From: Macrostomum hystrix
Taxonomy: Eukaryota > Animalia > Platyhelminthes
DNA: 64,000 bases
Direction: 5' to 3'
Assembly (NCBI GenBank): GCA_950097015.1
Contig: CATNEN010000002.1
Span: forward strand, 558,001 to 622,000
This document shows positions 8,681 to 32,855 of this stretch, piece by piece. Position 1 is the stretch's first letter, and every line of letters begins with the position of its first letter. The position numbers were made by a program, and so were the translations under genes. The notes under the pieces were generated by a model, which saw only the letters and a list, made by a program, of their open reading frames with translations, searched no databases and had not been told where the DNA came from.

Positions 8681-8723
8681 CGGATTTTCAATAGTAATGT
8701 TGTTATTGGGAAATTATTTAAAC

Positions 8724-9704
8724 ATGAGCAGGTACCACTGCCCTTCATACATACACGAGGTGTGCATCAATTGCAATATTTGCTCACTCGGAAAATTGAG
8801 ACATCACGTTACGCGCGAAGGCTGTACTGTCAGTCGCTGGCTCGTTTGCCATGAATGCAATTCAGCTGAGCCTTTTACCATCCGCGGACAAATTCGACGA
8901 CACAAAAATCATGCTGTTGTCAACTGGGGCTCTGCTGAAGACCTCGAGCGAGCCCGACAAACAGCATTGGAATCCGCACGCCAGCAAGAGGCATTTCAAG
9001 CGCTTGAGCGTATTCGCCAGCCTGAGAGCGCTCTTAGTCAGATCATCTCCAACGTCTGTGGTAGATCATCTTCAAACGATCATCCTGTTGCTGGTGTAGC
9101 TCCCATCCTCGCTGCCGTGCCGGCTTTGCTGCCCGATGCTACAGAAAATCTTCCGGTCGGCAGACAAGCTAACGACATCGAAATCGTAAATGCGATAGAT
9201 GCTGAAGTCATTGAGCTGGACACTGCATTTATCGAAGAGCTTCATTTTGAGGGCCAAATTAATCATCAGGATCGACCCCAACATCAGGTACTCCAACAGC
9301 TGCTGCAGCGGGAGGATTCAGAGCCTCATCAACAGCAGCAGCAGCAGCAGCAGCAGACTGGGCTGGAGCAGCATCAGCAGCAGCTGCCAGAGGAGGAGCA
9401 GGAGCAGCATCAACAGCGCCGAGCCATTCCCGCAGTTGCAGGAAAAAATATCGAGCGAGCAAGGATGCTGGCAGAAACCAACGCCCTAACTGAAATTCTC
9501 CGTGAGTTAGAGTCTGACTCTGACCCTGCTCCAGCCGCACCACCAACAGCGGCGCCGGCACAAGCAGTGGCTGATCAGGCTCCACCTGTTGTTGAAGGAC
9601 AGTTGTATCCTATTAGCATTCAATTTGTTCTGCCCAGCAGTATTACTGGTCAATATTGTATTGACTTTGGGGGAAACTTTCAAATTCAACTTAGCAACTT
9701 TTAA
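8724..9704 (+). CDS. Polinton accessory protein: N-terminal Cys/His (zinc-binding-like) region with LxCxE, then acidic and poly-Gln regions
   Basis: Open 326-codon frame from the first ATG. CxxC...HH and CxxC...HxxH clusters, LVCHE at 8841-8855, poly-Q near 9330-9360. Confidence 0.65.
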   Translation: MSRYHCPSYIHEVCINCNICSLGKLRHHVTREGCTVSRWLVCHECNSAEPFTIRGQIRRHKNHAVVNWGSAEDLERARQTALESARQQEAFQALERIRQPESALSQIISNVCGRSSSNDHPVAGVAPILAAVPALLPDATENLPVGRQANDIEIVNAIDAEVIELDTAFIEELHFEGQINHQDRPQHQVLQQLLQREDSEPHQQQQQQQQQTGLEQHQQQLPEEEQEQHQQRRAIPAVAGKNIERARMLAETNALTEILRELESDSDPAPAAPPTAAPAQAVADQAPPVVEGQLYPISIQFVLPSSITGQYCIDFGGNFQIQLSNF

Positions 9705-10588
9705 TTAAAAATCACTATCCGTTTTTCCATTTAGTCACATTATTTTTTAATAATTTCATCTCTTTTGGCAGTGGCTTTTTAAATAAGGAATAGCACAAAC
9801 AATAAAATCTACAAAGCTGGTTTAGCACATATCTCTTCCAACTTTGTTTGGCTACACATTTCAAAATAGTTTTATTACAATTTGTAGATATTTAACCTGC
9901 GTGCTGCTTTTTGTGTGTGTTGTAGGTGTGACATCATCTGAGTTACATACATTGAAAATAAATTGACGAGACAGGTTATGGATTAAATAAATTTCAAAAA
10001 AAGTTTTCTTGGATTTCAGATTTTCTTTTGAAAATGAAAGGCTGCTTACTTTTTACGATACGTAGATAATAAAGTGCTAAGAAATATAGTGTGATAATCA
10101 TTTGAATAAAATATGTTTCTGATATTTGTCACTAGACTTACTATTATTGTAATTATAATAATAATTATTATTATTAATCTACTTAATAATTTTCTTTCAG
10201 TCACTGAAAATAATTCATGAATAAGTATGGCCGTCTCAAACGGAGGCTTAAATTATTTCGAGTCAAGCAATTCAAGCGAGTCATTTTATTCTTCTGATAG
10301 ATATGGTGAGAATTATCATTATAGTTTTTATTTGATCGCAAACTATGTTCAAGTTTCCGAAATAATTTCAGAAATAAACGTATTTGAAAAGTCGCTACGG
10401 TTATTAGAAAAACAAATATTGCAAATCACTGCATAAATTGAATGCCGATTTGTGTTTTATATAAAGAATTTATAAATTTAGGAATATTCTCTGACTGAAA
10501 TTTAATGATATAAGCAAGCTTTCTCAAATTCGTATTCACCTGCCAAATCGGGAAAATTAATTTATATAGGACTACAGTAACTGAAAAT

Positions 10589-13500
10589 TTGGGTGCTTTT
10601 AATTGGTTAGATACTAAACTATTACGAGGCTACATAAATTGCTTCCTTATCCTTTTAATTCTATTACGAGGCTACAAACTTCCTTTCTTATCCATTAAAT
10701 TTGCAGGAATCCCATTCCGATCTTCCATCATATCAGCTGCACACGATCATGTCCTTGAAGTGCTGCGTTTTATTCCGACAGTTCAGTGCGATCCGTTTGA
10801 ATTTCTTCATGTGACTAAAGAAGCCGTTCGACAAGCGCTTGAAATACGACTCGACTCTTCTGATGGTCAGTCTATTCGCGCACAACTCAAGCTCAACGTT
10901 CGCATGATCAGGCTAGCTGCAATTTAGATGTTTTGCCTGTTCATACCGAAATCAAGTATGTCGCGCACCACTTGGTATGTCTGAATGCCATATGTGAGTT
11001 TGAAAACTGGTGGATGCAGCAATTCACTGAACTTGAGCGCAAAATTGATACTTACAATTCCAATGGTAGTGGCTGGGTCGTTAATGGTCTGAATCACTTG
11101 GATCTGTGCAGTACTCTATCTGATCGGATTCGTTACTATTCCGGTAGATGCAGCGAATTTAATTTGCCTATTGAGCTACTCAACAAGAAGGCTCTCATCA
11201 ACCCTCCCAGTAATGGAAATGACTGTTTCCGTTTTGCCTGCTTGGCCTATCTTCATCGCGATGATCCTGCAGTGAAAAAATCTGGTCATAGATTATCAAC
11301 TTACAAAAACTGGGAGGCAGAAATTGATTTAACAGGCATTAATTTCCCCATCTCAATTAGCGACCTCGATGAAGTCGAGCAGAGAAACGCTGAAATATGT
11401 TTTACCGTTTTAACATGGGAGAATTCGAAGCCTTCAGTGATTCGTCAACCTAGCACTGTAATTAGCAACATCGCGAAATATTGTTCTACTTATGTTAGTC
11501 CAGCCATGTAATCTTCGCAAGGACTCATCCGATATCGACATTGGTGATAATATATGTGACAATCTTGGCCACTGGTGTGCTGTTAGCAGCCTTGATAGGC
11601 TCTTCAATAGCAAACTAGGCTTTCGGAATCGAAAGTGGTGTGAGCGATGTTTGAGTAATTTTCGTACTGAAATTGATCTTCACTCTCACCAGGTGCATTG
11701 CAATCTTCAACAATCGACATCCATCAAGGAGAATATGCCAGAGCCAGAAAGCTTCATGCGCTTCACATCCTGGGAAAAGACGCTGAGTCCTCCTTTTGTT
11801 GTCTACGCCGACTTCGAGGCATTTAATGTCCCAACTGCTTCAGTTGATGATTATGATACATCAGCAATCATCAGGCTGACTGAGCACGTGCCCGCTGCTG
11901 CTGGCTACATCACAATCGCCCGAGAGGGGATTAGTCAGTTGTGTAGGCCTAGTGAGGAGGTAGCACTCTTTTGTGATTCTGATGCACACACCTGTGTCAA
12001 AGAATTCTTGATGTCACTAGAAAAGCTGGCTAGGAAAGTTTATGGTTGGAATAAAGAGTTCAGCCACAAACCTGCACTCAAGCATAATGAAGACATTCGA
12101 AAATTCCACGAATCTGTGTGCTGCCACTATTGTGGAGAAGTTATTTCATCTTCTAGTGAGAAGCACTGGGACCACGATCACTTGACTGGCGCATTCCGCG
12201 GCGCTGCCTGCAGCTCGTGTAACAAGCTAGCTAGACTTAAGCGTCGCTTTCTACCAATTGTCATGCATAACTTGCGTAACTATGACCTGCACCTCATCTT
12301 CTCTACCGCCCTTGGCAACATGCCTGGCTGGAAAATCAGCGTCATCCCACAAACAGCCGAGGCATACCTATCAATGCGAGTTGAGTTCAAAATCGATTAG
12401 TATGAAAAGGATGGCAGGATGATCCCACTGAGCTTCACACTTCAGTTTATTGATAGCTTCCTGTTTCTACACAGTAGCATTGCACAGCTTATTGCGAATT
12501 TGTCGGAAGATGAATGCAAAGTGACGTCTCGGATGCAGGAGCATTACCCAAATGTGAGCGATGAAGTCCTTTTTTCAAAAGGTGTATTCCCATATGACTA
12601 TCTATCTGGTAGTCATGTACTCTATGATACACAACTGCCTAGCCGAGAGCATTTTTTTAATCGATTAAACAACTGCGAATGCAGCACAAATGATTATGTG
12701 CATGTTCAAAGAGCGTGGCGCGAATTCGATGTAGCCAATTTGCGTCACTACATGCTCTGTTACCTTGAGTTAGATGTCCGTCAACTTGCGGATATTTTTG
12801 AAAATTTCCGTCGACTCAGCCTCCGAGAAGATGGTCTGGATCCGGTTCATTTTGTTTCAACACCGGGGCTTTCGTTTGCTTCAGCAATTAAGTCGCTTTC
12901 TGGCATTGCAAAAGTAGGCATCCAGCTTTTGAGCGACAATGAAATGTATCGGACCTTCGAGCGAGGAATCCGTGGTGGCATGTGCTTTGTCAACGTCCAT
13001 CATGTTCGAGCGAGTGCGACTGACATCACTGAAGCCGAAACTGATAAACAACCAACCAAAAGTTTGCTAGCAATCGATGCGAACAATCTATATGGCCATG
13101 CTCTCACAATGCCACTCCCCGTCAGAGACTTCCGTTGGCTCAGTGAGGGGGAAGTCATCGTCTGGACGGAAGAGAGATTTTTGTGCCTGGATGAAAATGG
13201 TCCCGTTGGCTATCTTGTTGAGGCCGACCTTCACTATCCCATAGAGATTCATGATTACACTGCTGATCTGCCGTTTGCACCCGAAAGGCAAAAACCTAGT
13301 TTCGATGAATTCCCGCCGCACATGAAGCACCTATGGAATTTGTTGCATCAAGAAAATCAACAGCAGCACCAGCAGCAGCACCAGCAGCAAAGACAACAGC
13401 AGCAACAACATGAACCCGCTAAATCAAGTAACTGTGGGAAGGAATATTGTGGTGTTGAAAAACTACTCCTGACCTGCAAGAACAAACTGGCCTACGTGCT

Positions 13501-14542
13501 GCACTCTTCTGCGCTAAAGTTCTATCTGGCACATGGCTTAAAGTTGACTAAAGTGCACAGAATGATTGAGTTCCGCCAAGAGCCAGTTTTTGCCTCATAC
13601 ATCAACAAGAATAGTGAGAAGCGATCGAATGCAAAGAATGCATTCGAAAAAGATTTCTACATATTCAAGAACAACAGTGTATTTGGCAAGGTAATGGAAA
13701 ATGTACGCAAGCGACGTGACATTAGAATTATCAATTCAACCGACAAAGCCAGGATCTATGCTGCCAATCCAAATTTAAAGTCCTTCACAATAGTTACAGA
13801 AAATCTAAGCATATTTGAGCTACAGAGGACAGAAGTCACTCTGGATCGTCCAATTCAAATGGGACAATGCGTCCTGGACCTATCAAAGATCGTTATGTAC
13901 GAGCTGCTCTACGACAAGTTGAAGCCATTACTTGAGCGTGATGGTGGGTGTGTTCGTGTCTGTGGCGGGGACACTGATTCGTTTTTTCTCTGCCTGGAAA
14001 ACATCGATGCTCAAAAGGAAGCTCTGCCTTTAATGGCTTTTCATGATCTGCTTGACACGTCCAACTTCCCAAAGGATGATGTACTTCACTCCGATCGCTT
14101 GAAGGCTAGGCTGGGATGTATTAAGGATGAGTCTACCGGTGTACTGAATGAAGAATGGGTCCTGCTGCGACCAAAATTGTATTCCTTCTTGACGACCAAG
14201 TCATCAGCCGACAAGAAGAAGGCGAAGGGCATTCAAGCATGCGTTGTCAAGCGGACTTTAACCCATGAAGACTAATTGCGAGTTTACAAGGACTCAACAC
14301 AGCTGTCACTCACTGTCCGTCGCATTGGAAGCATCAATCACCGATTGTTTACACTCAAACAGCAGAAGCTGGCTCTAAGCATCTGGGAGGATAAACGAGC
14401 CTGGATAGGTCCAAACTCAAGCCTCCCTTTCGGACACATTCGGCTTTTGCAACTGCAGGAGCAATGCGTTCTAGATGAAGAATCCCAGCTGACTGTTGAA
14501 CTCAATGAAAGGCCAAGGAAGCGAATGCTGTTACGACCTTAG
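10589..14542 (+). pseudogene. pPolB: Protein-primed family B DNA polymerase (pPolB), disrupted
   Basis: Motifs YADFE, EndoVII/HNH-like CxxC..WDHDHLTGAFRGAACSSCN, HNLRNYD, FIDS, KGVFPYDY, RGG, DANNLYG, NNSVFGK, DTDS, RPKLY, KAKG. Frameshifts near 10925 and 11490-11510; in-frame stops at 12398-12400 and 14273-14275. True start uncertain. Confidence 0.95.
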
Positions 14543-15357
14543 TCAGGTTGCTGCGACAACTGTCTTTTAATGGTCACTAGAAGTTATTAGTAGTTGATCT
14601 TTTTTGTGAGCATTTCTGTTTAATGAAGAGCAAATCGAATAAGAATAATTTGAATTCTACCGTTAAATCACAGCTTTGCTTTAAAGATGATTACTTCTAG
14701 TGGCCAGTCTTGTTTTTGTTTGACAGCATTTGTTGACAATTAGACTGTGCACAGCAGGACTAGTGCTTGTATTCTAACAGCCGTTATTGCTATCACTATA
14801 TTCTTTATTAATTCAGCTACCAATTATCTGCTTCTAATTAGTTTTGCATTGCAGCAAATTCAGCAACGAGAACTATTTTCATAGCTGACTATGAACTTTC
14901 TTTACAGTCTGGTAATATTTGTATTTTTATGGTTCTCATACAACTAATTTTATTGGCTGGTGGTGGTTGTGATCTATCTTTGATCATTTTGTTTAATTCG
15001 TTTTGTATGCTGCTTCGAATTTATATTTTGAGCGTAGCATATTTTGCTGTTATTTCTGGTGAATGATTTACTCATGCGATGCGATGCTTTGTTTCTCTGT
15101 TTGGTCTTTATTTTAACTTTCCATTTATTTCACAAAATGTTTATTTCCTTATGCATCATGTGTGTGTGTACTTATTTTCAATTACATCCAGCGCATCACG
15201 TTTGCCCGTCAAATGTAAAAAGCGTTGTTAATATCAGTCTAAAACCAGATTTTTTCGTGCAAAATAAATCAGACGGTTGAAGGCTTGAGGCATTTCATAT
15301 CAGCAAACATCCAAACGGGTTTAAATATGTCATTGATTTCTTAGTTTATTTATTTAT

Positions 15358-15724
15358 TTATTTGCGTACAGCCGTCAGCAAGCCTGCTAGTAAGGATAGG
15401 TCCGATTGTAGCATATATTCTGACTTTGCCCCGCTGAGCACAAATGAGCCATTGTGAAAAAGCATGCATTTACAGTATTCGAGCTGACACACTAATGCAG
15501 AAAAGCTTTCAGGTTCATATCTAGCATTCGGTAGCACATCATTGAGGCTTGTCAAGCATTGGGGGTTAGGCAAGTCAATCTTTCCATGTGCACTAATAGT
15601 TTTAATTCGTACACAAATGGACTGATGAGGCAGCAGTTGAGCAGGCACTCTGCGATGCAGCATAGCCACGAAGCGACGGGCAGCCCTGACTGAGTCCGAG
15701 TAGCTCCGGGCGCCACAGATGCTC
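15358..15724 (-). pseudogene. TBP-like gene, 3' part (codons 70-191)
   Basis: SICGARSYSDSVRAARRF..VRIKTISAHGKI..ARYEPESFSAL..MLFHNGSFVLSGAKS aligns with TBP VCTGAKSEEQSRLAARKY..FKIQNMVGS..SSYEPELFPGL..LIFVSGKVVLTGAK. Confidence 0.8.
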
Positions 15725-15732
15725 GGTTCTCT

Positions 15733-15793
15733 GTGGAAGCGTGCTGGGCCCATAACCCAGAGGTCCGTGGATCGAAACCACGCTCTGCTACCA
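15733..15793 (+). other. 61-nt DNA copy of the 3' part of initiator tRNA-Met including CCA (captured RT primer)
   Basis: GTGGAAGCGTGCTGGGCCCATAACCCAGAGGTCCGTGGATCGAAACCACGCTCTGCTACCA has the CAT anticodon and iMet-type GATCGAAA T-loop. First ~14 nt are absent; it lies 2 nt from the LTR end. Confidence 0.93.
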
Positions 15794-15795
15794 CT

Positions 15796-16046
15796 TGTGG
15801 CTCTTAGCCAAAACAAATTAAGCTAAGGCGGTGAACTTGTATTTCTCTTAGCAGGGTTAAGAAGGGGAGCCTTGGCCCCCGTGGTCGGCTTTATTTAATT
15901 GAGCTGGTACAGTTAATCTATGGGAAAAAGGGAAGGCTAGTATCCTAGTATTCTTGGTGGAACAAGTGGGGTTGTCTATGGAAATAAAAGAAAGTTAGAG
16001 TCGTAACTAAGTCTGAAATAAAAGTTCGTTTTAGACGCTACAAACA
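15796..16046 (-). repeat. Gypsy LTR (~250 bp)
   Basis: Starts TG directly after the PPT (alternatively at 16042), contains AATAAA, ends ...GCCACA, followed by AG and the PBS-like TGGTAGCAGAG. Confidence 0.8.
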
Positions 16047-16054
16047 CTCCCCCC

Positions 16055-17761
16055 TCAACGAGTAAGAACAGTTACATTGTCATTAAAATGGACGCGTTTT
16101 ATGGGGCGTTGTTGCACTTGAAAAACTGGGCTTATAACAGGGTTTGAATTGGTCATTGAGCGCGTCTGGGGTGCAGGATCTGGCAGACGTGCCGGTTTGA
16201 TGCGTTCGATTGATACCACTTGAGGTTTGCCCTTGATATCCAGGGTCATTGTGTCAGCGGAACGGTGGACGACCTTGAAAGGGCCCTGATATGGTGCTTC
16301 CAATGGTTTTCTCACGCGATCTAATCGAAGCCAAGCAAATTCACAGGTTGATAGGTCGGATGGAAGGTGAACTGGTCGATGCTGCGTCCGTGGCAGTCGG
16401 TACGGGAAGAATAAACTGTGAAGGCTTTGTGCGATTTTTCGATTGTTGGAATCGTCAGTAACGACTGGCGGAACAAGTGGTTGTTCGCCGGTTACGGTAG
16501 AAAAGGGAGAGTTACCAGTGTCATCCGGATGAATGCGCAGACCAAAAAGAACGACATTCAGTTGAGATAGCCATGAACGACCTCGTGCGCGAAGACTGGC
16601 TTTGAGAGAGCGATGAGAGCGTTCTATCATTCCGTTAGCTTTCGGATTGTAAGCTGAGGTGCGGATGTGGTGAACACCGAGAAGGGTCACCAGGTCGGCC
16701 ATCAGCTCTGAGCGAAACTGTGTCCCTTGATCAGTAACCAGGGTTAATGGTGGTCCAAAGCGACAGACCCAATGGTCGACAAAAGCACGTGCGACTGCAG
16801 CAGCCGAAATGGTTTGCAGCGGAACGGCTTCAATCCAGCGAGTAAATGAATCTATTACGGTAAGAAGGTAGCGGGGCTGCGGTGTTGATAAGTCGTCGGG
16901 CTCCGGAGGTGGAAGTGGTCCCACTAAATCCATGTGGACAGTCGTAAAACGCTGTGTGGGGCACGGTAGGAAATGAAGTGGGCGTTGAATGTGGCGCCCA
17001 ACTTTGGCGGCTTGGCACTGGAGACATGAAGCTGTCCAATTCTGTACGTCGGATTTCATACATGGCCAAAAAAAACGATGGGCAACTAGGCGTAGTGTGG
17101 CCTTGACTCCAGCATGTGAAATTTCGTGAAGAGCTAGGACGATCTGCCGACGTAGACTCTCCGGAACGAAAGGGCGAGGATTGGGTTGTGACGTCTCGCA
17201 GTAGAGTGGACAGTCAAGTAGACCAATGTCAAAAGGACTAAACTGGTCACCAGTTATTCCCATTTCTTTTTGTGCTCGCGCGATTGCCGGGAGGTCGGCA
17301 GGTAGTTGAATGATTGGGTTGTCTGCGTCTTCAATTACATTGACGGCGTATGTATCGGTGACATCGCGGGACAGAGTGTCAGCAACGACGTTTTTGGTGC
17401 CCGGGATATGTACAATTTCCGTGACGTATTCCGTGATGGTGGATAATTGGCGTTGCTGTCGATCCGAGAGGCGTTCTTTGGTACTATGGAACGCGCCTAT
17501 CAGTGGTTTGTGGTCGCAAAACACAGTTGTCGGATGACCATGAATGAGATGGCGCCAGGTTTTTACTGCAGCGAACACAGCCAGGAGCTCACGGTCGAAG
17601 GCGCTGTATGAGCATTCGGTAGTTGTTAGCTTACGTGAGAAAAACGCTATCGGTGAGGAGTTTCCTTCAACTACCTGATGAAGACTGGCACCAATCGCAA
17701 AAGAACTGGCGTCGGACGTTATGGTGAAAGTAGCTGTAGGATCAGGAAAGGCGAGGGTAAC
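16055..17761 (-). pseudogene. pol: Gypsy pol, RNase H C-part and integrase
   Basis: ORF 16055-17578: CDHKPL, LHEISH..CLQC, HMDLVGP, TDQGTQF, NGMIERSHR, APYQGPF. Confidence 0.93.
17414..17761. repeat. 348-bp direct repeat (second copy 21554-21901) flanking the LINE insertion
   Basis: AATTTCCGTGACG...GCGAGGGTAAC appears identical on both sides of 17762-21553. Confidence 0.95.
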
Positions 17762-20700: not shown

Positions 20701-21553
20701 GCCTTTGTAGGCTTTGAGCGGGCAAGCCATTTCGTAGGCCTCTGTGATGGCGCCGCCCAGCAGGGCAGCCACTCCATCCAGGTCCTGCGTGGTTTCCATG
20801 GCCATGGAGGGGTCAGAATCCCGAAGGCCCTCATGCAGCTTTTGGCTGAACGCGGGCCAGTCGGTATTTCTGACATTACGCCTCCAAATAGGCTTTTGCT
20901 TCTTATCGGGGGTGCCGATGTTGAAACGGATGAAACGGTGGTCCGAGAGCGAGCTTTCGGTCTCCCACACCTCCCACCCCAGCACCCTTGGGAGGATGCC
21001 GGGTGAGGCCAGGGTGACGTCAAGCACCTCAGCCCACCGCCCATTGTCGAAAGTGGGCGTGTTGCCCACATTGCAGAAGTTTAGAGGCGTGCCGCTGACG
21101 AAGGCCAGGAGCTCTTCGCCGCGGTCATTGATTTTTGAGCTACCCCAGTGGGTGTGATGCGAGTTTACATCTCCCGCGAGGAGCAGCTCGAAGTTTCGTG
21201 CCCTGGCGAATTCACAGAGGGCGACGAGGGTATCGCTAACCACGGGGGCGTCGCCTGCCAGGTAGGCGGATGCCACGAGGGTCAACTTGTTAGGCACAAT
21301 GTGTGCAGATTGGATGACGCAGATGTCCCCGTTAGAGAGATCGGGTCTCATCCACGCATTTAAGGCTTTTGCGGCATAGATCAGTGATCTAGGGCGGACA
21401 GAGTCTGCCATGCAGAAGCAGTCATAGCCAGCAGGAATGTTGCTTGGCTTGTTCTTTGATAGCCAGGGCTCCTGCACAAGTACAAGGCCCGGCATCATGC
21501 GCTCTGTCGTGCGCATCAGATTGACTGATGCTGCCACGCAGTGCTGGGTGTTA
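17762..21553 (-). mobile_element. Non-LTR retrotransposon (LOA/I-group-like), ORF2 plus 3' UTR, 5'-truncated at the APE start
   Basis: APE (QEP, GDVN, DVTL, SDH), RT (FLDIEGAFD, GPQGG, YADD), RNase H (YTDGS, SDSQ, WIPGH, GNEMAD), C-terminal CCHC. Tail (TAAGTCAAG)x2. Confidence 0.92.
17880..21552 (-). pseudogene. LINE ORF2 (APE-RT-RNase H-CCHC) with one +1 frameshift
   Basis: ORFs 19021-21537 and 17880-19037 join if one T is removed from the T run near 19026-19030 (IDNF-VKGE). Confidence 0.9.
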
Positions 21554-23200
21554 AATTTCCGTGACGTATTCCGTGATGGTGGATAATTGGCGTTGCTGTC
21601 GATCCGAGAGGCGTTCTTTGGTACTATGGAACGCGCCTATCAGTGGTTTGTGGTCGCAAAACACAGTTGTCGGATGACCATGAATGAGATGGCGCCAGGT
21701 TTTTACTGCAGCGAACACAGCCAGGAGCTCACGGTCGAAGGCGCTGTATGAGCATTCGGTAGTTGTTAGCTTACGTGAGAAAAACGCTATCGGTGAGGAG
21801 TTTCCTTCAACTACCTGATGAAGACTGGCACCAATCGCAAAAGAACTGGCGTCGGACGTTATGGTGAAAGTAGCTGTAGGATCAGGAAAGGCGAGGGTAA
21901 CAGCGGAGGATAAACTATCCTTAAGTTTCTGGAAAGCTGCATCGTGGTGAGCAGTCCACTCGTAGGAGTCATCACTCAATGATCGAAGAGGTTGAATAAT
22001 GTGGGCGTAGTTTGGAATGTGACGTTGATAGAAACCAAACATACCCAGTATTCTCTGTAGACTCTTGAAATCGCGCGGAGGTGAGAGTTTGCGAAGTGCG
22101 TCTAGACGAGATGGAATTGGTTGAATGCCTTGGGCAGAGATTAGGTGACCGAGGAATTCAATTTCCTTTTGAAAAAATTGACATTTTTCAGGATTTACTC
22201 GCAAGCCTTCATGGCGCAGTCTCTGTAAAACGGATTCCACATCCCTGTGGTGCTCCTCCTCCGATTTGCTGTGGATCAGGACGTCGTCAACATACGTGAT
22301 TGCACAATCCAGACCACGGAAAAGGGAGTCGATGAACCGTTGAAATGTACTGCCGGAGTTCCGCAGGCCGAATGGCATCCTCGTGTATTCAAAGGATCCA
22401 AAAGGGGTGCAAATCGCGGTTTTGGCAATGTCCTCCTCAGCCATAGGAATGAAGTGGTATGCCTTGACAAGATCCAGTTTGCTGAAAACATTGCTGCCTC
22501 GTAGGTGGTGATGAAAATGTCGAAGATGAGGCAACGGATATCGGTCGGGAGTTGTTACGCTGTTAAGGGCGCGGTAGTCTCCACACGGTCACCAAGATCC
22601 GTCGGGCTTCTTGACCATGTGGAGCGGTGAGGCCCACGGACTAGAAGACGGGCGAACGATGCCCATTTGCAGGAGCTTGTCAAATTCAGCTTTGGCAACA
22701 GCATACTTAGCAGGAGACAGTGGGCGAGGTTTGCAGAATACTGGTTTTCCAGTGGTGATGATTTGATGAGTCACTGGCGTTGCAGGAAGGACTGAGTAAT
22801 CGGGCGAAGCCGTTAGATCAGGAAACGGCAATAGAACGTGACTAACTGGTGCGGCAGCAACAACATGAACAGAGGGAGGTATAAAACCTTTGGTGTGTTC
22901 AAAACACAGTGGTGCGGAAAGGGAAGTGAGTGGGTCGCGGATGCATCTGGAACCCATGTCGATAAGCAGTTCGTATTGAGTCAAAAAATCCGAGCCGAGT
23001 ATAGGGGCCGTGTTAGCAATAATGAAATTGACACGAAACATACGCCGCAGGCCATTAATGGAGAATGTGACCGACGATTGACCATGCAGATGAATTTCGT
23101 GACCGCTGAGTCCTCGGAGGCGGACGTTACAGGGAGATATGAGGTTGAGCGGAACGAAACTTGGAGGGAGCAGAGATCTGGAAAGAGCAGAGCAGAGCAG
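21554..23200 (-). pseudogene. pol: Gypsy pol, truncated protease, RT and RNase H N-part
   Basis: Starts after the protease catalytic motif; ILGSDFL, SPWASP, stop TGA at 22589-22591 in place of R of DGSWR, LDLVKAY, YVDD. Confidence 0.92.
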
Positions 23201-23409
23201 AGTTGACCGGTGGGATAGAGCAGCAGAGTGACTCCCGGATCCCGCATCCTCTTGATGAGCACTCGGGGCCAAACGGGTCGGTAGATGACATGAGCCATGC
23301 TGAGAGCCAGTTCCCGTAGAGGAAGTTGGGCGCCCCTGCCTCCAGCCAGTCTCAGATCCACGCCACCGACCAGGTTGGTCACTCTCAGAGTTGACAAAGG
23401 TGTACTCAT
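23201..23409 (-). pseudogene. TBP-like gene, 5' part (codons 1-70)
   Basis: LRVTNLVGGVDL..LPLRELALSMAHVIYRPVWPRVLIKRMRDPGVTLLLYPTGQL aligns with TBP [52 protein letters not shown]. Confidence 0.8.
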
Positions 23410-23944
23410 TTCCGATGTTTTTTCTGCTTGCGGTAGTGTAGTTGCTGATTTCGTTGAAAGTGCTGATGCCTTTTGAATGGTGCTGACACACCTCGCTTCT
23501 TAAGCTTATGGAAAACTTGGGCTTCAACCAGCTGTAGTACATTAATGTATTTTTTAATGCGCAGCCGGTATTAGATTGTTCGACTAAAGGTCCTCCCAGG
23601 TCCTCAAGGTTGTACACCTGTTGGCCAAGAAGTTCAGTTAGAAAAGCGGACTTCCTCGCTCCGCTAGTCCAAGTTGGGCCGTAAGAAATTTTGGGAATGT
23701 CAGTTTTTAATTTCTTGTAAGATCGGGTTCCATCGTTCCATTTGAGCCGGTGCAGATTCCTTGAGAGTTTTCTGTAGTGCACTCGCATCTCATGCGAGAT
23801 CATTTCCCATGCATATGGTGAGGAATAAAGATGATGAGTGATATTGTAACTGCCTGCTCGGACTTCAACAACCGCCAGCTCCTTCACAATGAAACCACTA
23901 CTTGATCTCTCACATGGAAAGCCTTGGAAGTCAATATAGTTCAT
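23410..23944 (-). CDS. Polinton accessory protein, DEDD/DnaQ-like exonuclease-fold candidate (3' end uncertain)
   Basis: MNYIDFQGF...FIVKELAV...SPYAW...LHRLKWNDG...VYNLEDLG...CALKN; resembles uncharacterised Maverick ORFs as I recall them. No stop before the TBP-like start. Confidence 0.5.
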
Positions 23945-23987
23945 TATTGGCAATATCGAATATCGAAAGAAAATACAGACAGCCGAT

Positions 23988-24692
23988 TTAATTTCCTTTC
24001 TTAAATAGTTTCTTTCTGCCCAGCTGTAACCAGGCTCTCTCGCTCCCAAGTCCCTTGACTGTATGATGAGCACAGTCTAGAGCTTCCGCCTCTAGAGAGG
24101 CTGCTGGCTTGGAAATAAGCTTTCTCACTGATTTCCCTATCGCTGAAGCTGGAATGTTTAGCTTGCTGTCTTGAAGCAATAAAACAAACTCACTCCAGCC
24201 CACCGGCTCGCTGTCGCATTTTGAATCCCTCACTGCAGTATGAAAGAGATCCATGATGTTTGAGGATGGTATTCTCTGCCCAGCCATTTGCACCTCGCCG
24301 TTTTCGAACACCTGGATGAGGGAGGGATTATCAGATAGGATGGCCCATAGACTGCGAGCCCTGGTTTTGAATTTCTGGGGCACGGACTGGACAATCTTTT
24401 CAGCCCAGCTGCTCGGCAGCATCTCTGCTTTCTGTTTCTTTGCCGCTTCACTCTCTCCTGCTACACTCTCCTTTCCAACTTGCTTGTGCTTGGACAACAA
24501 ACTTTTCATAGCGTTCTGGTACATGGCTGTCTTCACATTGTCTGGGCAATCGTCGGCATACAATATATCATCACATTTAATCTGTGCCTGCTTTACCGCA
24601 ATGTCTCCTGCAGACTCATTGGGTTTCACATTAATCATTAGCATGTCATACTCAGACTTGGGAATCAGAACCATCTCAGAGAACTTGTTCAT
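23988..24692 (-). CDS. Conserved uncharacterised Polinton protein (PZ-like, tentative)
   Basis: MVLIP..Y start and NGEV..G..IPSSNIMDL...PVGW.EF...L...NIP pattern typical of Maverick core ORFs; position within the morphogenesis cluster. Confidence 0.6.
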   Translation of the reverse strand: MNKFSEMVLIPKSEYDMLMINVKPNESAGDIAVKQAQIKCDDILYADDCPDNVKTAMYQNAMKSLLSKHKQVGKESVAGESEAAKKQKAEMLPSSWAEKIVQSVPQKFKTRARSLWAILSDNPSLIQVFENGEVQMAGQRIPSSNIMDLFHTAVRDSKCDSEPVGWSEFVLLLQDSKLNIPASAIGKSVRKLISKPAASLEAEALDCAHHTVKGLGSERAWLQLGRKKLFKKGN

Positions 24693-24999
24693 TTTCCTTC
24701 TTTCTTCTATGCACAAGCTTCAGCAGAGTGGGGAGAATTTTTATGAAATTATGATTTAGCAAGTCAGCTTCTTTTCTTTGAGCTGGGATTTTTCGAATAA
24801 TCTGCTTGGACTTTGCCAGCTCAGCCTTTTCAATAAGAGAGAAAGTCAGGTTGTTTTCCAATAGGTTGTAACAGGCTTCAACAAGGAATTTTCGCACTTC
24901 TTTCGGACCGTGCTTGATTAGCAAGCGCTTGAAGCTGACAGTGTATTTCGCTGATGCAAGAATTGCAAAGATGCTTTCATGAAAACAAAGCGTGTCCAT
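24676..24999 (-). CDS. Small conserved Polinton protein (PW-like, tentative)
   Basis: 107 aa, EACYNLLENNL..L.K.K..IRK pattern; lies next to the ATPase. Confidence 0.6.
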   Translation of the reverse strand: MDTLCFHESIFAILASAKYTVSFKRLLIKHGPKEVRKFLVEACYNLLENNLTFSLIEKAELAKSKQIIRKIPAQRKEADLLNHNFIKILPTLLKLVHRRKKENEQVL

Positions 25000-25038
25000 T
25001 GTTGAGTATAGATATGGAAAACAGCGTATTTGCCATTC

Positions 25039-25728
25039 TTAGGTATAAACCAGGTGGGGGCGCTGGTTGGGCAGGATCCGCGCTCGCACTCGCAGCTCAT
25101 CGGGAGTGGATGGGTGGAAATCCAGAAGCAGGTAAGCTCCCCTGCCTTGAGCGGTCACATGCTTAAACACAGACAGCAGAAAGCCGGGCTTCTCTGCAAA
25201 GCACTGCCTGCCCAGTGCTGCAATCTGCAGCTGGTCTCTGGGGTTCTTCATGATGACAAAGTACATCGCATTCAGACTCATCGTTCGCAACTCTTTTCCT
25301 TTAAAAAATACATTCTGGGTCAGCATTACCAGAAAGCAGGGTAAGTTATGAGCGATTCCGGTGAATACATTTCGCATCGCAGCAGAGCTAGAAGTCTCAT
25401 CAATCAAATCATCAAAAACAATCAGGTCATTGGGTCTTAGAGCCGCCTCAATGTTGCTGGGGAATCCCTGCTGCATGTGCACTCCCAGGCTGCTCAGCTC
25501 AGAGTGCACTGTCTGCGAAACCCCATAGTACCACAGGACTCTCTCAGGCATCGTATCAAACATAACATCCCTGTACTGAATTAGCTGCTTCACGAAGGTT
25601 GTCTTGCCAGCATTGGTTGGCCCGCTGACAATCATGCAGCTTCCCTGCCGCAGGCGGGCATCATAGCAGGTTCTATTCGCACTGGTTTCCATAGTCGGCT
25701 TTAGCCAATTTGTAGAGCTGACTTTCAT
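25039..25728 (-). CDS. FtsK/HerA (A32-like) packaging ATPase
   Basis: Walker A GPTNAGKT, Walker B LIVFDD, LTQN, RTMSLN..Y, KNPRD; intact. Confidence 0.93.
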   Translation of the reverse strand: MKVSSTNWLKPTMETSANRTCYDARLRQGSCMIVSGPTNAGKTTFVKQLIQYRDVMFDTMPERVLWYYGVSQTVHSELSSLGVHMQQGFPSNIEAALRPNDLIVFDDLIDETSSSAAMRNVFTGIAHNLPCFLVMLTQNVFFKGKELRTMSLNAMYFVIMKNPRDQLQIAALGRQCFAEKPGFLLSVFKHVTAQGRGAYLLLDFHPSTPDELRVRARILPNQRPHLVYT

Positions 25729-26240
25729 AACTTTCTCTTTCTTAGGCTGGCTTCGAACTGCCGAAGCATTCTGTCATTCAGGTGGCTCTTTTCCTTTGAA
25801 TGCAGTTGTCGCAGAACCCACTTAAATGACCGTTTGAATTGAAACTTCTGATAAGTAAAATAAAGACAGAAGAGACCGCATTTGACAGAGTCACAGCTTT
25901 GAATTCGATCCACATTGCTGCTCAAACGAAGCGGGGAACCCAAGGCTACTTGCAGTAAATCATGAATAATCATTAAAGTTTTCGAGTCCCAGCCAAGGGA
26001 ATTGAAAAGCTCCACAGAATTCCCGTAAGTGACGTCGCAAACCACCCAGTGGCCTGACAAGGAGCTGTGATGCAACAAAAGGAAAATAAATTTGCTCTTA
26101 TATGTTTTCTCATTCAGGTAACTCCGCAAATGAAATTCTAATTCAGCATTATTAGAACTATTCAAATTTAGAGACACTATAAAAGCGTTTCTAATGGGCA
26201 AAAAGCTTCTGGCAAGTTTAAACATCTGAAAAGTGTTCAT
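25725..26240 (-). CDS. Adenain-like cysteine protease
   Basis: GHW, FNSLG (D to N versus the usual FDS.G), Q..DS..CG; ATGA overlap with the ATPase. Confidence 0.85.
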   Translation of the reverse strand: MNTFQMFKLARSFLPIRNAFIVSLNLNSSNNAELEFHLRSYLNEKTYKSKFIFLLLHHSSLSGHWVVCDVTYGNSVELFNSLGWDSKTLMIIHDLLQVALGSPLRLSSNVDRIQSCDSVKCGLFCLYFTYQKFQFKRSFKWVLRQLHSKEKSHLNDRMLRQFEASLRKRKL

Positions 26241-26245
26241 AATTA

Positions 26246-26729
26246 TTATGAAAAATCTTGCAAAATTTCCCTATGCTTGGTGACTTCAATCAGAACCGAA
26301 ATCGGAACCGAATCTCCAGCCGCAGGTTTCCCTCTTTCTGTCCGTACCACAAGGCTGCTCCCTCGGGTGTGAGGTCGAACGCTAACACGGTGTTGTCGTT
26401 GGAGAAGATCTGATAGGGGATCCATGGGACCGAGTTGGTGGGGCTGGCAGACTGGCAGCTTTTCAGGTAGTGCAAGTACTCTCGCACAAATGAGTTGTTT
26501 TCGGGTGTGAATGCACCGTGGCACATGGTTTCCCCGCCTTTCTTTAGAGCTAGCTGGCTGAGGTTGAAGATCTAAAAATGGATCCCGCTTTTAGATCCAT
26601 GAATTCGATGGGTGCATTTGCAGCAATTGAGTTCACGGGGTGAATATCGACATAGGAGGATTTGTCAATGGCAGTCTGCAGCGCAGGAGCCTTGAACAAA
26701 TCGAGCCTTGGGTTGAATCCATAAGCCAT
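26246..26729 (-). pseudogene. Major capsid protein (double jelly-roll) remnant with large internal deletion
   Basis: N-terminal LDLFKAPALQTAIDKSSYVDIHPVN...PIEF (26729-26600) is joined to C-terminal ...AFDLTP...GNLRLEIRF and IEVTKHREILQDFS; only 484 bp remain. Confidence 0.85.
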
Positions 26730-26731
26730 TT

Positions 26732-27118
26732 CTACGACAAAGAGTCCAGCACGCGCTTCACCGTTTTCCTGCTGACTTTTCGTTTCCTCTTGCTTACCGT
26801 TTTGCCCTTTGCTTTGCTCTCTCCTTTCTTAGGTTTCTTTCTACCAGAATTTTTCCGTTTTCTTGATTTTTTCCCCTTCTTGCCATTTTGGCGAGGTGTC
26901 TTCTGTATTCTCTTTTTCCTAGAAACTTTAGCATTCAACTGTCTTCTTTTGCTAACGCTTTTGCCAGCCGAGGCCAACTGAGATGCATGTGCTGGTGAAG
27001 TTGCTGGAGGAGGTTGATATGTCATGATCCCTGGAAAACTTCCGCACCCATAGGGCGCAGATTTATCGCTTCCATTTCGAGTTCCAGAGTACTGCCGGAT
27101 CAGCTGCTGATAGTTCAT
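26732..27118 (-). CDS. Lys/Arg-rich putative core (DNA-condensing) protein
   Basis: 128 aa, highly basic C-terminal half, Gly-rich N-terminus; lies between the minor and major capsid genes. Confidence 0.65.
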   Translation of the reverse strand: MNYQQLIRQYSGTRNGSDKSAPYGCGSFPGIMTYQPPPATSPAHASQLASAGKSVSKRRQLNAKVSRKKRIQKTPRQNGKKGKKSRKRKNSGRKKPKKGESKAKGKTVSKRKRKVSRKTVKRVLDSLS

Positions 27119-27921
27119 CGAATAAGTTTCTCCTGGATCTGAATCGTGAGCAAAACAGGACTGCAGCTCTGAGCAGTCAGAGAGTGACCAAATGTATCCA
27201 GCAGTTGAATTCGAATGCTGTGTAGAAAATTTGCTTTCTGGATTGGGAAGAACAATGTTTTCTTAAACACTTTGCTGAAGTAGCAGCCCCATTCAGCATT
27301 AGAACTGATGTTCACAGTTCGCAGCAGGGAGTCCCAGTTGCAGCTTGTTGACTCAACAAGGCTGCAGTGCACATTGACCAGGTTGGTGGGCGGACAGCCG
27401 ATGCAACAGCTTGACACGTGGCGCCCAGGTGGGATTTTGATTGACTGGTTTCCAAATCCCAACCACTGCAGGATTTTGCTTGGAGGAAAATACAACTCTG
27501 CTCGTGCGGTATTGTTGTGCATCACTGTTCTTTGATTCTGAATTTCAAACTTTATCCCAAAATCTTTATTGCTGCGAGCCATCAGGCCCGATTCATCAGC
27601 CTCCATCTCAGACTCTCTATCGCTCATGGCATCAAAGAACAGTGACTCAGAGTTGACTAGTAGCTCGTTCAACCGCTCCACCAGCTCATCCACTCTGTCA
27701 AAGCGTCCGGGTTGAAGAACCAGGGCCTCATGCTCTCTTCCATCTGAGACTGTGAAGCAGTAAGGCTCGTCAACATTGAGCCATGCAGTAGGCAGATGGA
27801 TTTCAGCCAGACCTGCCTCATAATCCACATTTCGATCCAAGTATATAGGTGCAGACAGGCGAAAATTAAAGTCACTAGAAGAACCTTCTGCATGCTCACT
27901 GTTTATTACGATGCTGCTCAT
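27115..27921 (-). CDS. Minor capsid (penton-like) protein
   Basis: SSDF..RLSAPIYL...YEAGLAEI.LP..W.N start and LVNVHCSLV..IRIQL.D C-terminal pattern of Polinton mCP. Confidence 0.8.
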   Translation of the reverse strand: MSSIVINSEHAEGSSSDFNFRLSAPIYLDRNVDYEAGLAEIHLPTAWLNVDEPYCFTVSDGREHEALVLQPGRFDRVDELVERLNELLVNSESLFFDAMSDRESEMEADESGLMARSNKDFGIKFEIQNQRTVMHNNTARAELYFPPSKILQWLGFGNQSIKIPPGRHVSSCCIGCPPTNLVNVHCSLVESTSCNWDSLLRTVNISSNAEWGCYFSKVFKKTLFFPIQKANFLHSIRIQLLDTFGHSLTAQSCSPVLLTIQIQEKLIR

Positions 27922-27963
27922 TCCTCAAAATCAAAATATTAAAATATCGAATAACTTAGATGT

Positions 27964-29061
27964 CTATACCTTTCTTAAGTCCTTCTCATCCACCCAGCCA
28001 GTCGAGTTGTAGTCGGCCCACTTTACGAGATAGCGAATCTTTCCCTTCCGCTTCTCAGTCTTTAGAATCTTTTCAATCACATACAGCCGCTGGGAGTCTG
28101 GAACAGCTTGCAGCTCATGCTCATGAAAGAGGCCTCGAATATCTTCACCCTTCATGTCTCGAATCTGGTACATATACGGATAATGCTTTGGAGCTCTTGA
28201 CACTACAGTATACACTTCTTCACTCCAGTTAGCCATGTATCCCTTTCTGAAGAGTCTGGGAGCATTTGAAATTCGTACAGACTGGTTTTCACTGAACTTC
28301 GGTTTTCTCAGCTTCTTAACTGTCTCAATCGCTTTCCCATCGTAAAGATTCATCCAGATGTCAGTCTCATTTTCTTTGCAAACATTCATTGGTGTAGTCT
28401 TAATGCTTCTGTGGAATGTATTGTTATAGGACTTGACCAGTTTAGGTAGCACATCAAGCCATTGTAGAGTGCTGTTGTGAGTAAAATAACGCCACATCTT
28501 GCTTTTTAAAGTTCGATTCCATCTTTCTATTACGGCAGCTTTGTGCTCACTGTTTGTTGGAAACGCCAGAATCCCGCGGTCTATGCAGAACTGGCGAAAT
28601 ATTGTGTTAAGAAACTCCTTTCCCTGATCCGTGCGGACGGTGCGTGGCTGCCGCTTTGAGCTCTTCAGCATGCTCTCAAACGCTGATTGCACTTCTGCTG
28701 CGCTTTTAGACCTCAGAGCTCTGGCCATAGCGAATTTAGATAAAACATCTATACATGTAAGAATGTATTTATGCCCGCGATTATATTTGGCAAACGGAAT
28801 CATTTCCACCAGATCCAACTCCCACTGATCATCAATGGCTCTTACTATTATTGGCGCCCTTTGAAATCGAACTCTAGCCGGCTTATGTAGAGTATGCACT
28901 GGCTGCTGACTTAGCCATTGCTCAATCCCCTTAATCCCGATGTGATAATCTCTTTTTCTCAGTTCATGTTGAAGCTTTGAAGAACTGCAATAACTCGCTG
29001 GCTGATTCGGGTTAAAGTAAACTTTTTCCTTTTTCAGAAACAAGGAGGCTAAAATTTTCAT
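27964..29061 (-). CDS. Polinton rve-type DDE integrase with C-terminal chromodomain
   Basis: WELDL, IDVLSK, RTDQGKEF, VIERWNRTLK; YVIEKIL...YLVKW chromodomain; intact. Confidence 0.95.
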   Translation of the reverse strand: MKILASLFLKKEKVYFNPNQPASYCSSSKLQHELRKRDYHIGIKGIEQWLSQQPVHTLHKPARVRFQRAPIIVRAIDDQWELDLVEMIPFAKYNRGHKYILTCIDVLSKFAMARALRSKSAAEVQSAFESMLKSSKRQPRTVRTDQGKEFLNTIFRQFCIDRGILAFPTNSEHKAAVIERWNRTLKSKMWRYFTHNSTLQWLDVLPKLVKSYNNTFHRSIKTTPMNVCKENETDIWMNLYDGKAIETVKKLRKPKFSENQSVRISNAPRLFRKGYMANWSEEVYTVVSRAPKHYPYMYQIRDMKGEDIRGLFHEHELQAVPDSQRLYVIEKILKTEKRKGKIRYLVKWADYNSTGWVDEKDLRKV

Positions 29062-29169
29062 AATTTATTTATTCTTAAGATGTTGGAAACGCACAAGCAG
29101 CACATATTTTTTCAAAAATTAGAAAAAGTATGGATAAAAATGTTGCTTTTAGTGTCAGAGGGTCCGCAT

Positions 29170-29937
29170 TCAGTCGAAGCGCAGTTTGGGCAGCTTCATG
29201 GCATCCAATCTACGCAGAGCAAACGACGGCTGCTTGCGCTTCCTAGCATTCTCAGCTGCAGCCGCTTGAGCTCGGAATTGGTACCAGACTGGGTCCTCCT
29301 GTAGATCAGTGTCTTGCTGAGGAATGGCTCCAGCTACAGCCTTTGAAAGTGGCAAAGGCGTTGAAGTGGCGAACTCCGTATCATTTTGCAGATTGGACGA
29401 CATTGCAGCTTCATCAGCAGCAGCAGCACCGTCCGAATCTTCCATCTTCAGGGCAGGTTTGGTTTCGTCTGCGTTGTCACCAGCACCGTCTTCGCCTTTG
29501 ATGCTGTCCGAGGAAGATCCTGGCTCCAGCTCGTACATATCTGACATCTCACGTTGAGCCGATAGCTGCCCGTCAATCCAATCCGCGTACTGCCACAGCT
29601 TCCGCCACAGCGGTGGTGTCAGCGGCACGGTGTTCCGCTTAAGAAACTCTTCGCAGCAGTCCTCGGGCAGTCGCTTTAGCCAGATGATGCTGTCCTTCAC
29701 CTCAATGAATTTATCAAAGCCAAGTTGTACGAATTTCGGCTGGTTGTCCAAGGCAGCCTTGACAAGCGATCTCTTCAGTTCCTTGAGCTTCTGCCATTGC
29801 CGGATGTTCAAATTGAAACCGGGGACTCCAGGTTTCAAACTCGCAGTGCTGCCATGTCGGTAAAATTTTCTGATAGCAATGAATTTCACTCCTTCATATT
29901 CCTGTATTTGCAGCTTATATCCTTCGCAGATGTCCAT
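29170..29937 (-). CDS. PC4/Sub1-like ssDNA-binding protein with two PC4-like repeats and an acidic tail
   Basis: LQIQEYEGVKFIAIRKFY...LKPGVPGFNLNIRQWQKL is the PC4 signature; second degenerate repeat ..VPLTPPLWRKL. TATATAA lies ~75 nt upstream. Confidence 0.8.
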   Translation of the reverse strand: MDICEGYKLQIQEYEGVKFIAIRKFYRHGSTASLKPGVPGFNLNIRQWQKLKELKRSLVKAALDNQPKFVQLGFDKFIEVKDSIIWLKRLPEDCCEEFLKRNTVPLTPPLWRKLWQYADWIDGQLSAQREMSDMYELEPGSSSDSIKGEDGAGDNADETKPALKMEDSDGAAAADEAAMSSNLQNDTEFATSTPLPLSKAVAGAIPQQDTDLQEDPVWYQFRAQAAAAENARKRKQPSFALRRLDAMKLPKLRFD

Positions 29938-30209
29938 GAAAAACTTAAACAGAATTAATTATCTCGTTTAAACAAAATTTCGGCTCTACGTGAATCAATC
30001 AATTTTTTGGTACTTATATAGACTAAACCATTGCCGCAAACATACAGCTATAGTAAAACATGGTCCGCGAGTTCCCACTAACCCACATTTTTTTACAAAT
30101 CAGCCCCGGAACTCCCCACCCCACCCCGGAACTCCCACGGCTTTCCCTGCGGCAGAGCACATCAATGCATTTACATCGGCTCCTATGTTCACTCACTAAC
30201 CCCAAGGTT
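29694..30209. repeat. 516-bp direct repeat (second copy 31995-32510) flanking the LINE 5' fragment; duplicates the PC4-like promoter and 5' end
   Basis: CCTTCACCTCAATG...CCCCAAGGTT appears identical on both sides of 30210-31994. Confidence 0.95.
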
Positions 30210-32824: not shown

Positions 32825-32855
32825 CCTGCCGGTTAGCGAACTGGCTGGAGTCCAG

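Follow-up and report, generated by a model that had tools for sequence, protein, structure and literature searches.

A decayed Polinton/Maverick in the flatworm Macrostomum hystrix carries a gene for a protein resembling the TATA-binding protein (TBP), and this gene closes a cluster of ten co-oriented genes, seven of which have the hexamer TAAGAA shortly upstream of their start. The element occupies positions 8123 to 32824 of a 64,000-nucleotide stretch of contig CATNEN010000002.1 (the window, to which all coordinates refer). We suggest, with about even confidence, that the element's TBP reads TAAGAA as a private late promoter served by host RNA polymerase II (Pol II). The suggestion draws on the gene, its conservation within a family, its place as the last gene of the cluster, the enrichment of the box and the changes at DNA-reading residues, together with a predicted saddle fold; binding to the box, late timing and the recruitment of TFIIB are what we infer from these. 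We know of no explanation for the way in which Polintons, with no RNA polymerase of their own, schedule and power the expression of their capsid genes, a matter that bears on whether Polintons are true viruses with early and late phases. Having a named protein and a six-base box makes our reading testable. The original prediction had seen in the element a transcription toolkit of three parts: the TBP-like protein, a tandem PC4-like protein and a zinc/LxCxE activator, here called ORF1 after its open reading frame (ORF). The part worth following is the pair of TBP and box, not the three-gene toolkit, two parts of which are ordinary or unproven; the PC4-like and zinc-finger (ORF1) genes probably lie outside the TBP/TAAGAA switch.

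The TBP-like gene and the TAAGAA box

The cluster genes, with distances in nucleotides (nt) from box to start codon, and the boxes ahead of the two terminal genes are listed here.

27964..29061, minus strand: retroviral-type integrase with chromodomain (rve E 6e-15, Chromo E 1e-4); TAAGAA at 29077 (-16), overlapping AATAAA at 29073
27115..27921, minus strand: presumed penton-like minor capsid protein; TAAGAA at 27977 (-56)
26732..27118, minus strand: K/R-rich protein, possibly core-protein-like; nearest TAAGAA at 27265 (-147)
26290..26729, minus strand: presumed major capsid protein remnant, internally deleted, 19/20 residues matching P0012; TAAGAA at 26831 (-102)
25725..26240, minus strand: adenain-type maturation protease (Peptidase_C5 E 0.0011, below cut-off); without TAAGAA
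25039..25728, minus strand: packaging ATPase (P-loop NTPase matches below the Pfam cut-off); TAAGAA at 25744, 16 nt from the first ATG and 52 nt from the second in-frame ATG
24676..24999, minus strand: presumed PW-like small ORF; TAAGAA at 25041 (-42), its TAA being the ATPase stop codon
23988..24692, minus strand: presumed PZ-like conserved ORF, 66-70% to parts of P0007 and P0012; without TAAGAA
23440..23944 (3' end approximate), minus strand: presumed exonuclease-like conserved ORF, 72% to P0013 over 160 residues; TAAGAA at 24003 (-59)
23197..23409, minus strand: TBP-like gene, 5' half (boundary about 23197); TAAGAA at 23502 (-93)
15358..15723, minus strand: TBP-like gene, 3' half (boundary about 15723); AATAAA 3 nt beyond the stop codon
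8671..8676, plus strand: TATAAA box, 53 nt ahead of the ORF1 ATG at 8724
30013..30020, minus strand: TATATAAG box (TATATAA), 83 nt ahead of the PC4 ATG

The halves of the TBP-like gene are separated by an insertion of about 7.5 kb, made up of a gypsy-type retroelement and a long interspersed nuclear element (LINE), and both exceed the PF00352 cut-off of 22.9 bits (24.7 for the 5' half, 40.9 for the 3' half). The TBP identity proposed in the original prediction therefore stands, but the gene is broken, which that prediction did not mention. An intact homologue of 190 residues, P0001, matches the 5' half over residues 1-70 (90%) and the 3' half over residues 71-178 (65%). Two stretches of P0001 match PF00352 (83.1 bits), giving the two TBP repeats, and its predicted structure is a full saddle (pLDDT 96, pTM 0.87) that resembles cellular and archaeal TBPs with a TM score of about 0.83 (Foldseek E 2e-14).

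The family is small: a word-indexed search found four matches among 24 candidates, and a full profile-free search gave five of 795 matches at E 1e-30 or better. Identity to P0001 falls to about 50%, the intact homologues are cores of 183-202 residues, and the frame is conserved intact in homologues 50-70% identical. In three other records, the fused Macrostomum lignano gene models P0007, P0012 and P0013, the TBP follows the same neighbours. In a FastTree phylogeny (65 rows, 175 columns) P0001-P0003 group with P0014 (0.93), and P0019 joins these (0.95), in the company of further TBPs that are short and divergent, although long branches make the grouping unsafe. Locus scans for relatives found none with the TBP half or a TBP alignment, with the ATPase or with the PC4 alignment, and none of the 84 loci from scans with more distant TBP alignments matched any of 11 element proteins by tblastn.

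We compared DNA-facing residues in four close homologues with 17 canonical-like rows, and read them in this copy as well. The Asn of repeat 1, both Phe of repeat 2 and both glutamates of the YEPE motif are kept in all four close homologues. One intercalating Phe of repeat 1 is changed to Tyr and the other to Pro; in repeat 2, Asn is replaced by Thr, Val by Thr or Ser, and Pro by Ser. The canonical set of four intercalating Phe and two base-reading Asn is thus reduced to two Phe, one Tyr and one Pro, and to one Asn of the two. This copy has the same pattern and both YEPE glutamates, so that the acidic stirrup residues for TFIIB are retained at the sequence level. We take these glutamates to be E186 and E188 in yeast numbering. 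The residues named in PMC12529657 are E184 and E188. The protein is therefore like cellular TBP (PF00352) in its two-repeat saddle, the Asn of repeat 1, three of the four intercalating aromatic positions and YEPE, and unlike it in the substitutions just given, in an identity of about 25%, in a short insertion after strand 1 and in having no N-terminal tail.

No hexamer ranks above TAAGAA in the regions upstream of the ten cluster genes, and in seven of these it lies within 110 nt of the start. Of nine coding-strand sites in the 7-kb cluster, seven fall in the 110-nt upstream windows (naive binomial p 7e-5), and an eighth upstream site precedes the core gene by 147 nt. All eight, the site at -147 included, read YYTAAGAA; the upstream windows contain no TAAGAA on the reverse strand, and the 18 single-base neighbours of the hexamer each occur at two of the ten genes at most. 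None of 20,000 base shuffles exceeded five genes, and any hexamer at all reached seven in 2 of 3,000 shuffles. Could the box arise as a side effect of gene ends rich in lysine, of stop codons and of poly(A) signals, with the TBP-like gene a captured passenger that has no promoter role? Of the seven boxes, five do fall within the last part of the preceding gene's coding sequence, a stop codon forms part of one, and another overlaps AATAAA. However, seven genes were reached in none of 5,000 synonymous-codon shuffles that kept the protein sequences (maximum six). When the two confounded genes are dropped (the integrase, with its AATAAA, and the PW-like gene, with its stop codon) and a spacing of 35-110 nt is demanded, TAAGAA still precedes five of eight genes (p about 1e-4). 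The conservation of the TBP-like frame in its homologues also speaks against a passenger, and we regard this explanation as very improbable.

TATAWA occurs within 130 nt upstream of none of the ten cluster genes. The reverse holds for the two terminal genes, ORF1 and PC4: TAAGAA is absent upstream of them, and TATA-like boxes are present. The original prediction had given both terminal genes TATA boxes; these are present at -53 and -83, but their joint occurrence is seen in 4.9% of 20,000 shuffles, weakly above chance. On the cluster strand AATAAA is found at 29073, 27907 and 27570, and then not until 3 nt past the TBP stop codon; several cluster transcripts may end at the poly(A) signal behind the TBP gene and be nested, with a common 3' end. 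A reading of TAAGAA as a trans-splicing signal was set aside, as a pyrimidine-rich AG stands just before the ATG in one gene only (penton).

Weighing a proposed late promoter role for TAAGAA

In our model, host TBP would start ORF1 and PC4 from their TATA-like boxes. Later, the element's TBP, and not a host factor, would bind TAAGAA, which would serve as a promoter element about 30 nt ahead of the start site. TBP-DNA structures have the 5' half of the box read by the C-terminal repeat, and the substitutions in that repeat (Asn to Thr, Val to Thr or Ser, Pro to Ser) may let the protein take TAAG instead of TATA. Host TFIIB would dock on the retained YEPE glutamates and bring host Pol II, and the cluster would be driven in this way. 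A Pfam scan of 21 ORFs of the element recognised no RNA polymerase and no TFIIB gene. We tentatively propose, as a possibility that falls somewhat short of an even chance, that Polintons of this lineage follow a viral programme of two stages whose switch is a single protein: a re-specified TBP core that replaces host TBP on private TAAGAA promoters and plugs into host TFIIB and Pol II. The original prediction had also envisaged a staged programme with the TBP driving the cluster. The boxes at seven of the ten cluster genes, the TATA-like boxes of the terminal genes and the changed DNA-reading residues agree with it, but the drive itself belongs to the model.

Several observations weigh against a private late promoter. 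The integrase box overlaps AATAAA, and its distance of 16 nt from the first ATG is too short for a -30 element; the ATPase box is equally close to its first ATG, so the model requires the second. The spacing from box to start codon is variable (16 to 102 nt), and three of the ten genes (protease, PZ-like and core) have no TAAGAA within 110 nt. A YYANWYY initiator is found at +20 to +36 for one of the seven upstream boxes, against a background of 14%. The TBP gene itself stands behind TAAGAA, and its first expression would need another route. The Pro that replaces one of four intercalating Phe in all four close homologues may weaken DNA binding. The alignment behind the P0001 model holds 65 rows, many of them cellular TBPs, and the confidence of the model partly reflects these. 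Finally, the promoter statistics come from one decayed copy with several gene starts assumed.

Some of these points suit a different explanation, in which TAAGAA is real but is a start-site or RNA-processing signal for host factors, and the TBP-like protein acts otherwise, by sequestering host TFIIB or by binding the element ends. TAAG recalls the late start motif of baculoviruses. Two boxes at 16 nt from the first ATG, the variable spacing and the lack of initiator enrichment at the expected distance would all fit, and the loss of one intercalating Phe and one base-reading Asn with retention of the YEPE glutamates is what a decoy would need. On the other hand, no RNA polymerase was recognisable among the 21 scanned ORFs, and the substitutions are concentrated on the surface facing DNA and fixed in homologues of 50-70% identity, which suits changed specificity over loss. 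We consider this explanation unlikely, though it deserves to be kept in mind.

Among known systems, the private late promoter proposed here comes closest to that of KSHV, the herpesvirus associated with Kaposi's sarcoma. Papers are cited by identifier. KSHV ORF24, the viral TBP of the beta/gamma-herpesvirus type, reads TATTWAA late promoters (PMC12529657). Common to both systems are a TBP fold encoded by the virus or element, a box other than TATA ahead of late structural genes, the use of host Pol II, TATA-type promoters for earlier genes and a more polar DNA-facing surface, the promoter role in the Polinton being putative. Unlike the Polinton TBP, ORF24 is large, has Pol II-binding and extra DNA-binding domains and needs five other viral factors (PMC12529657). 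It is also without the acidic residues that bind TFIIB (PMC12529657), whereas the Polinton protein is a bare core of 190 residues that keeps the YEPE glutamates and is like cellular TBP in sequence. The element has no large ORF24-type protein of a six-protein complex, and its TBP is an analogue at most, not a member of the herpesvirus-type system.

The TBP homologues of giant viruses (Nucleocytoviricota) also share the fold, the best BFVD match being from Heterosigma akashiwo virus (E 8.5e-12), but identities are 6-19% in the 47 significant BFVD rows, weaker than to cellular TBP. Most giant viruses with a TBP encode their own RNA polymerase, unlike the element as far as its 21 scanned ORFs show. 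A TBP-labelled gene also occurs in MELD viruses with an adintovirus-like PolB (PMC8502044, Fig. 5 legend, section on non-animal datasets), so that a TBP-like gene in a Polinton-related genome has a parallel there. The MELD TBP is a label in a figure legend, and the text of PMC8502044, as far as it was covered, yielded no promoter motif or mechanism for it. No description of a TBP-specific late box, or of PC4, in animal Polintons was found in the literature covered (10.1101/697771 included), a coverage outside which most subscription journals and Repbase fall and within which figure labels of PMC8502044 could name either.

Viral TBPs in herpesviruses and giant viruses, and a TBP label for a Polinton-related virus, are therefore already known. 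If our reading is true, an element of roughly 15-20 kb re-specifies the most conserved basal transcription factor and offers a natural example of a recoded TBP preference. No smaller device for late transcription would then be known from a DNA virus; it would have arisen independently of herpesviruses and would form an orthogonal pair of TBP and promoter that occurs in nature.

The PC4-like gene and ORF1

29170..29937, minus strand: PC4-like gene, intact, 255 residues, with a PC4 repeat, a possible second repeat, an acidic linker and, at the C-terminus, a conserved motif containing RKRK
8724..9704, plus strand: ORF1, 326 residues (in-frame ATG also at 8697), upstream of the DNA polymerase gene, with N-terminal CxxC pairs and an embedded LxCxE followed by acidic, Q-rich and P/A-rich low complexity

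The first PC4 repeat scores 31 bits against a PF02229 cut-off of 25 and matches human PC4 at E 0.0004-0.002. Three PC4-like homologues among 92 candidates are 73-76% identical over the first 135 residues. The protein had been described as a tandem PC4; this is upheld for repeat 1, but the second repeat was not confirmed. Four sequence tests for repeat 2 gave nothing, Pfam among them: hhalign of the two repeats returns a probability of 0.5%, hidden Markov model comparisons place one against the other at ranks 33, 466, 506 and 612 among the 902 reported of 1,004 sequences, and the pairwise scores are equalled by 181-595 of 1,000 shuffles. The structure model is poor (pLDDT 43), yet shows a second strands-plus-helix unit; it is too poor for a fold search, in which Foldseek gave no match at E 0.001 and VIA a best Z of 3.9. 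Atlas scores to PC4-bearing clusters are 0.85-0.88, below the lead threshold of 0.9; the ten best family matches are all PC4. A second PC4 repeat in the same chain is therefore only a lead. We note that one Atlas cluster of 485 members (about 142 residues), with PC4 on 36% of its members, is 52% viral, with Mollusca the commonest host phylum; many DNA viruses of animals, or many Polintons, may thus carry proteins of the PC4 type. In the homologue P0161, residues 1-36 belong to an upstream in-frame translation, with Tyr-Ile-Lys 31 codons before the shared start, which, judged from the protein only, would be compatible with a conserved TATA-like box.

Contacts of PC4 with single-stranded DNA are made by F77, W89, R70, R86, R100 and K101, and many orthologues have Tyr at position 89 (PMC4350104). 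Repeat 1 keeps R86 and has Tyr at both stacking positions (F77 and W89), and in these features and the PC4 repeat itself the protein is like PC4/Sub1 and the phage T5 homologue (PF02229; PMC4350104; PMC7549692). Unlike PC4/Sub1, it has no N-terminal extension and opens directly on the PC4 fold, which 62 residues precede in human PC4 (PMC4350104); it also has a possible second repeat and a long acidic tail. The acidic linker holds 17 D/E and five K/R. For coactivation, human PC4 needs its N-terminal region, and protein-primed strand-displacement replication generally needs a single-stranded DNA-binding protein (SSB). The T5 homologue has been implicated in replication (PMC7549692). Because of the missing extension, the T5 precedent and the SSB need of strand displacement, we rate an SSB role somewhat likelier than coactivation, and slightly favour the view that the protein would be an early single-stranded DNA-binding helper for strand-displacement replication. 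Against such a role, three of the four basic DNA contacts (R70, R100 and K101) are not kept in repeat 1. The protein might couple the TBP switch to replicating DNA.

In ORF1, counted from the ATG at 8724, CxxC is found at residues 14, 17 and 42 and the LxCxE motif reads LVCHE at residues 40-44. The LxCxE cysteine is also the first cysteine of a CxxC pair and is probably a zinc ligand. By composition about 0.06 LxCxE motifs are expected in ORF1, while the six frames of 8-33 kb hold seven. Oncoid genes of adintoviruses are described as lying upstream of PolB and encoding LxCxE next to paired CxxC (PMC8502044, section 3.2), and ORF1 has this layout. Unlike Oncoid proteins, it has no CK2 site directly after the motif (the first match comes 26 residues later), no CR1, and a motif cysteine shared with CxxC (PMC8502044); a CK2 site and CR1 are typical but not obligatory in the class. 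A zinc/LxCxE activator-like ORF had been predicted, and the LxCxE motif is present, but with its cysteine shared with a CxxC pair. No homologue was found among 137 candidates of 179-571 residues, shorter or longer relatives being outside that search; ORF1 has no Pfam match, and its PDB (best E 0.18) and PHROG matches are at chance level. We take ORF1 to be, in all likelihood, an Oncoid-type regulator that acts early and has a putative Rb motif, and as an LxCxE ORF it is not new, since it fits a published class.

Taken as a toolkit, PC4 would be the coactivator of the element's TBP and ORF1 an Rb-binding activator. All three genes do sit in one element, PC4 and ORF1 share TATA-like boxes and an upstream ACATAGG motif, and the acidic linker and conserved C-terminal motif of the PC4-like protein could contact partners. 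PC4 orthologues act as transcription cofactors (PMC4350104), and a phage single-stranded DNA-binding cofactor of RNA polymerase is known (PMC7145618). The PC4-like protein nevertheless starts without the stretch that spans 62 residues in human PC4 (PMC4350104), the T5 homologue points to replication (PMC7549692), and ORF1 has neither a homologue among the 137 candidates nor the CK2 site and CR1. We find a three-part toolkit improbable. The toolkit claim of the original prediction gains no support, as PC4 without its extension fits an SSB at least as well and ORF1 is without homologue.

The element, its ends and its insertions

8123..32824, no strand assigned: Polinton/Maverick, decayed, with two nested insertions, terminal inverted repeats (TIRs) and target duplication
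8123..8326, plus strand: left TIR, starting with AGTAGTAG, arm about 200 nt
32622..32824, minus strand: right TIR, arm about 200 nt
10221..14539 (5' end approximate), plus strand: protein-primed DNA polymerase B that includes an endonuclease VII domain (Endonuclease_7 E 2.9e-9; polymerase motifs read directly), in several pieces with stops and frame changes
15724..23196 (ends approximate), minus strand: gypsy-type long terminal repeat (LTR) retroelement, 5'-truncated, with nested LINE (about 17762-21553), splitting the TBP-like gene
30214..32514, no strand assigned: GC-rich insert (LINE-like candidate), then a 520-nt duplicate of 29694-30213 repeating the PC4 5' end

Polintons are defined by TIRs beginning AGT-AGT and a 6-bp target duplication, and the element at 8123-32824 has both. 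The TIR arms at 8123-8315 and 32632-32824 (193 nt each) are 98% complementary, both element ends are AGTAGTAG, and CCTGCC at 8117-8122 and 32825-32830 flanks the element. The rve match of the integrase (55.8 bits against a cut-off of 32.6) identifies it as of retroviral type. The TIRs and the duplication confirm that the ORFs share one Polinton, as had been proposed. Among named proteins, the nearest matches come from Macrostomum lignano. This copy is dead and cannot itself run any transcription programme, with a fragmented polymerase gene, an internal deletion in the major capsid gene and a split TBP-like gene.

Several gene labels are ours. We take 23440..23944 to be exonuclease-like from a motif and 26290..26729 to be the major capsid protein from its terminal motifs, and we presume the penton-like, PZ-like and PW-like labels in the same way. 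Pfam gives no significant match for the exonuclease-like ORF, no family for the major capsid remnant or the penton-like ORF, and no polymerase domain in the polymerase gene at 10221..14539. The exonuclease-like frame continues without stops and covers the 5' half of the TBP gene, which is read in a different frame (23197-23944, minus strand), and the same run-on in the M. lignano record P0013 marks a conserved overlap. The 5' region of the polymerase gene (10221-11100) runs across three frames with AT-rich gaps, possibly introns; CTAAGAAA stands on the plus strand at 10078, about 150 nt ahead of the first candidate polymerase ATG. Glutamine-rich tracts occur in the polymerase frame (13346-13413) and in ORF1 (9324-9412).

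Both GC-rich insertions are flanked by long direct duplications (17414-17761 and 21554-21901, 348 nt, 100% identical; 29694-30213 and 31995-32514, 520 nt, 99.8%). These far exceed the usual length of a target duplication and may be either a family signature or an assembly artefact. One insert has an endonuclease-reverse transcriptase-RNase H frame, the other a 376-residue ORF of unassigned family. The gypsy LTR lies at about 15797-16046, and beside it, at 15730-15794, are about 60 nt that we take to resemble initiator tRNA-Met in its 3' part, CCA included. This stretch is much longer than a normal primer-binding site; it folds no better than shuffles and was not called by ARAGORN or Rfam, which found nothing elsewhere either.

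An 83-nt inner segment of the TIR (8176-8258) recurs at 86% upstream of the PC4 gene (30121-30203, with a copy at 32422-32504), and an ATAGG(C/A)G motif is present in the TIRs and upstream of both terminal genes (8637 and 8653 on the ORF1 side). Segment and motif are candidates for an early enhancer or origin element. The Polinton sits within a single unit of a tandem repeat of the host, about 13 kb in length (1-8122 and 32825-64000), whose spacings are 13,008-13,122 and whose units are 96-100% identical.

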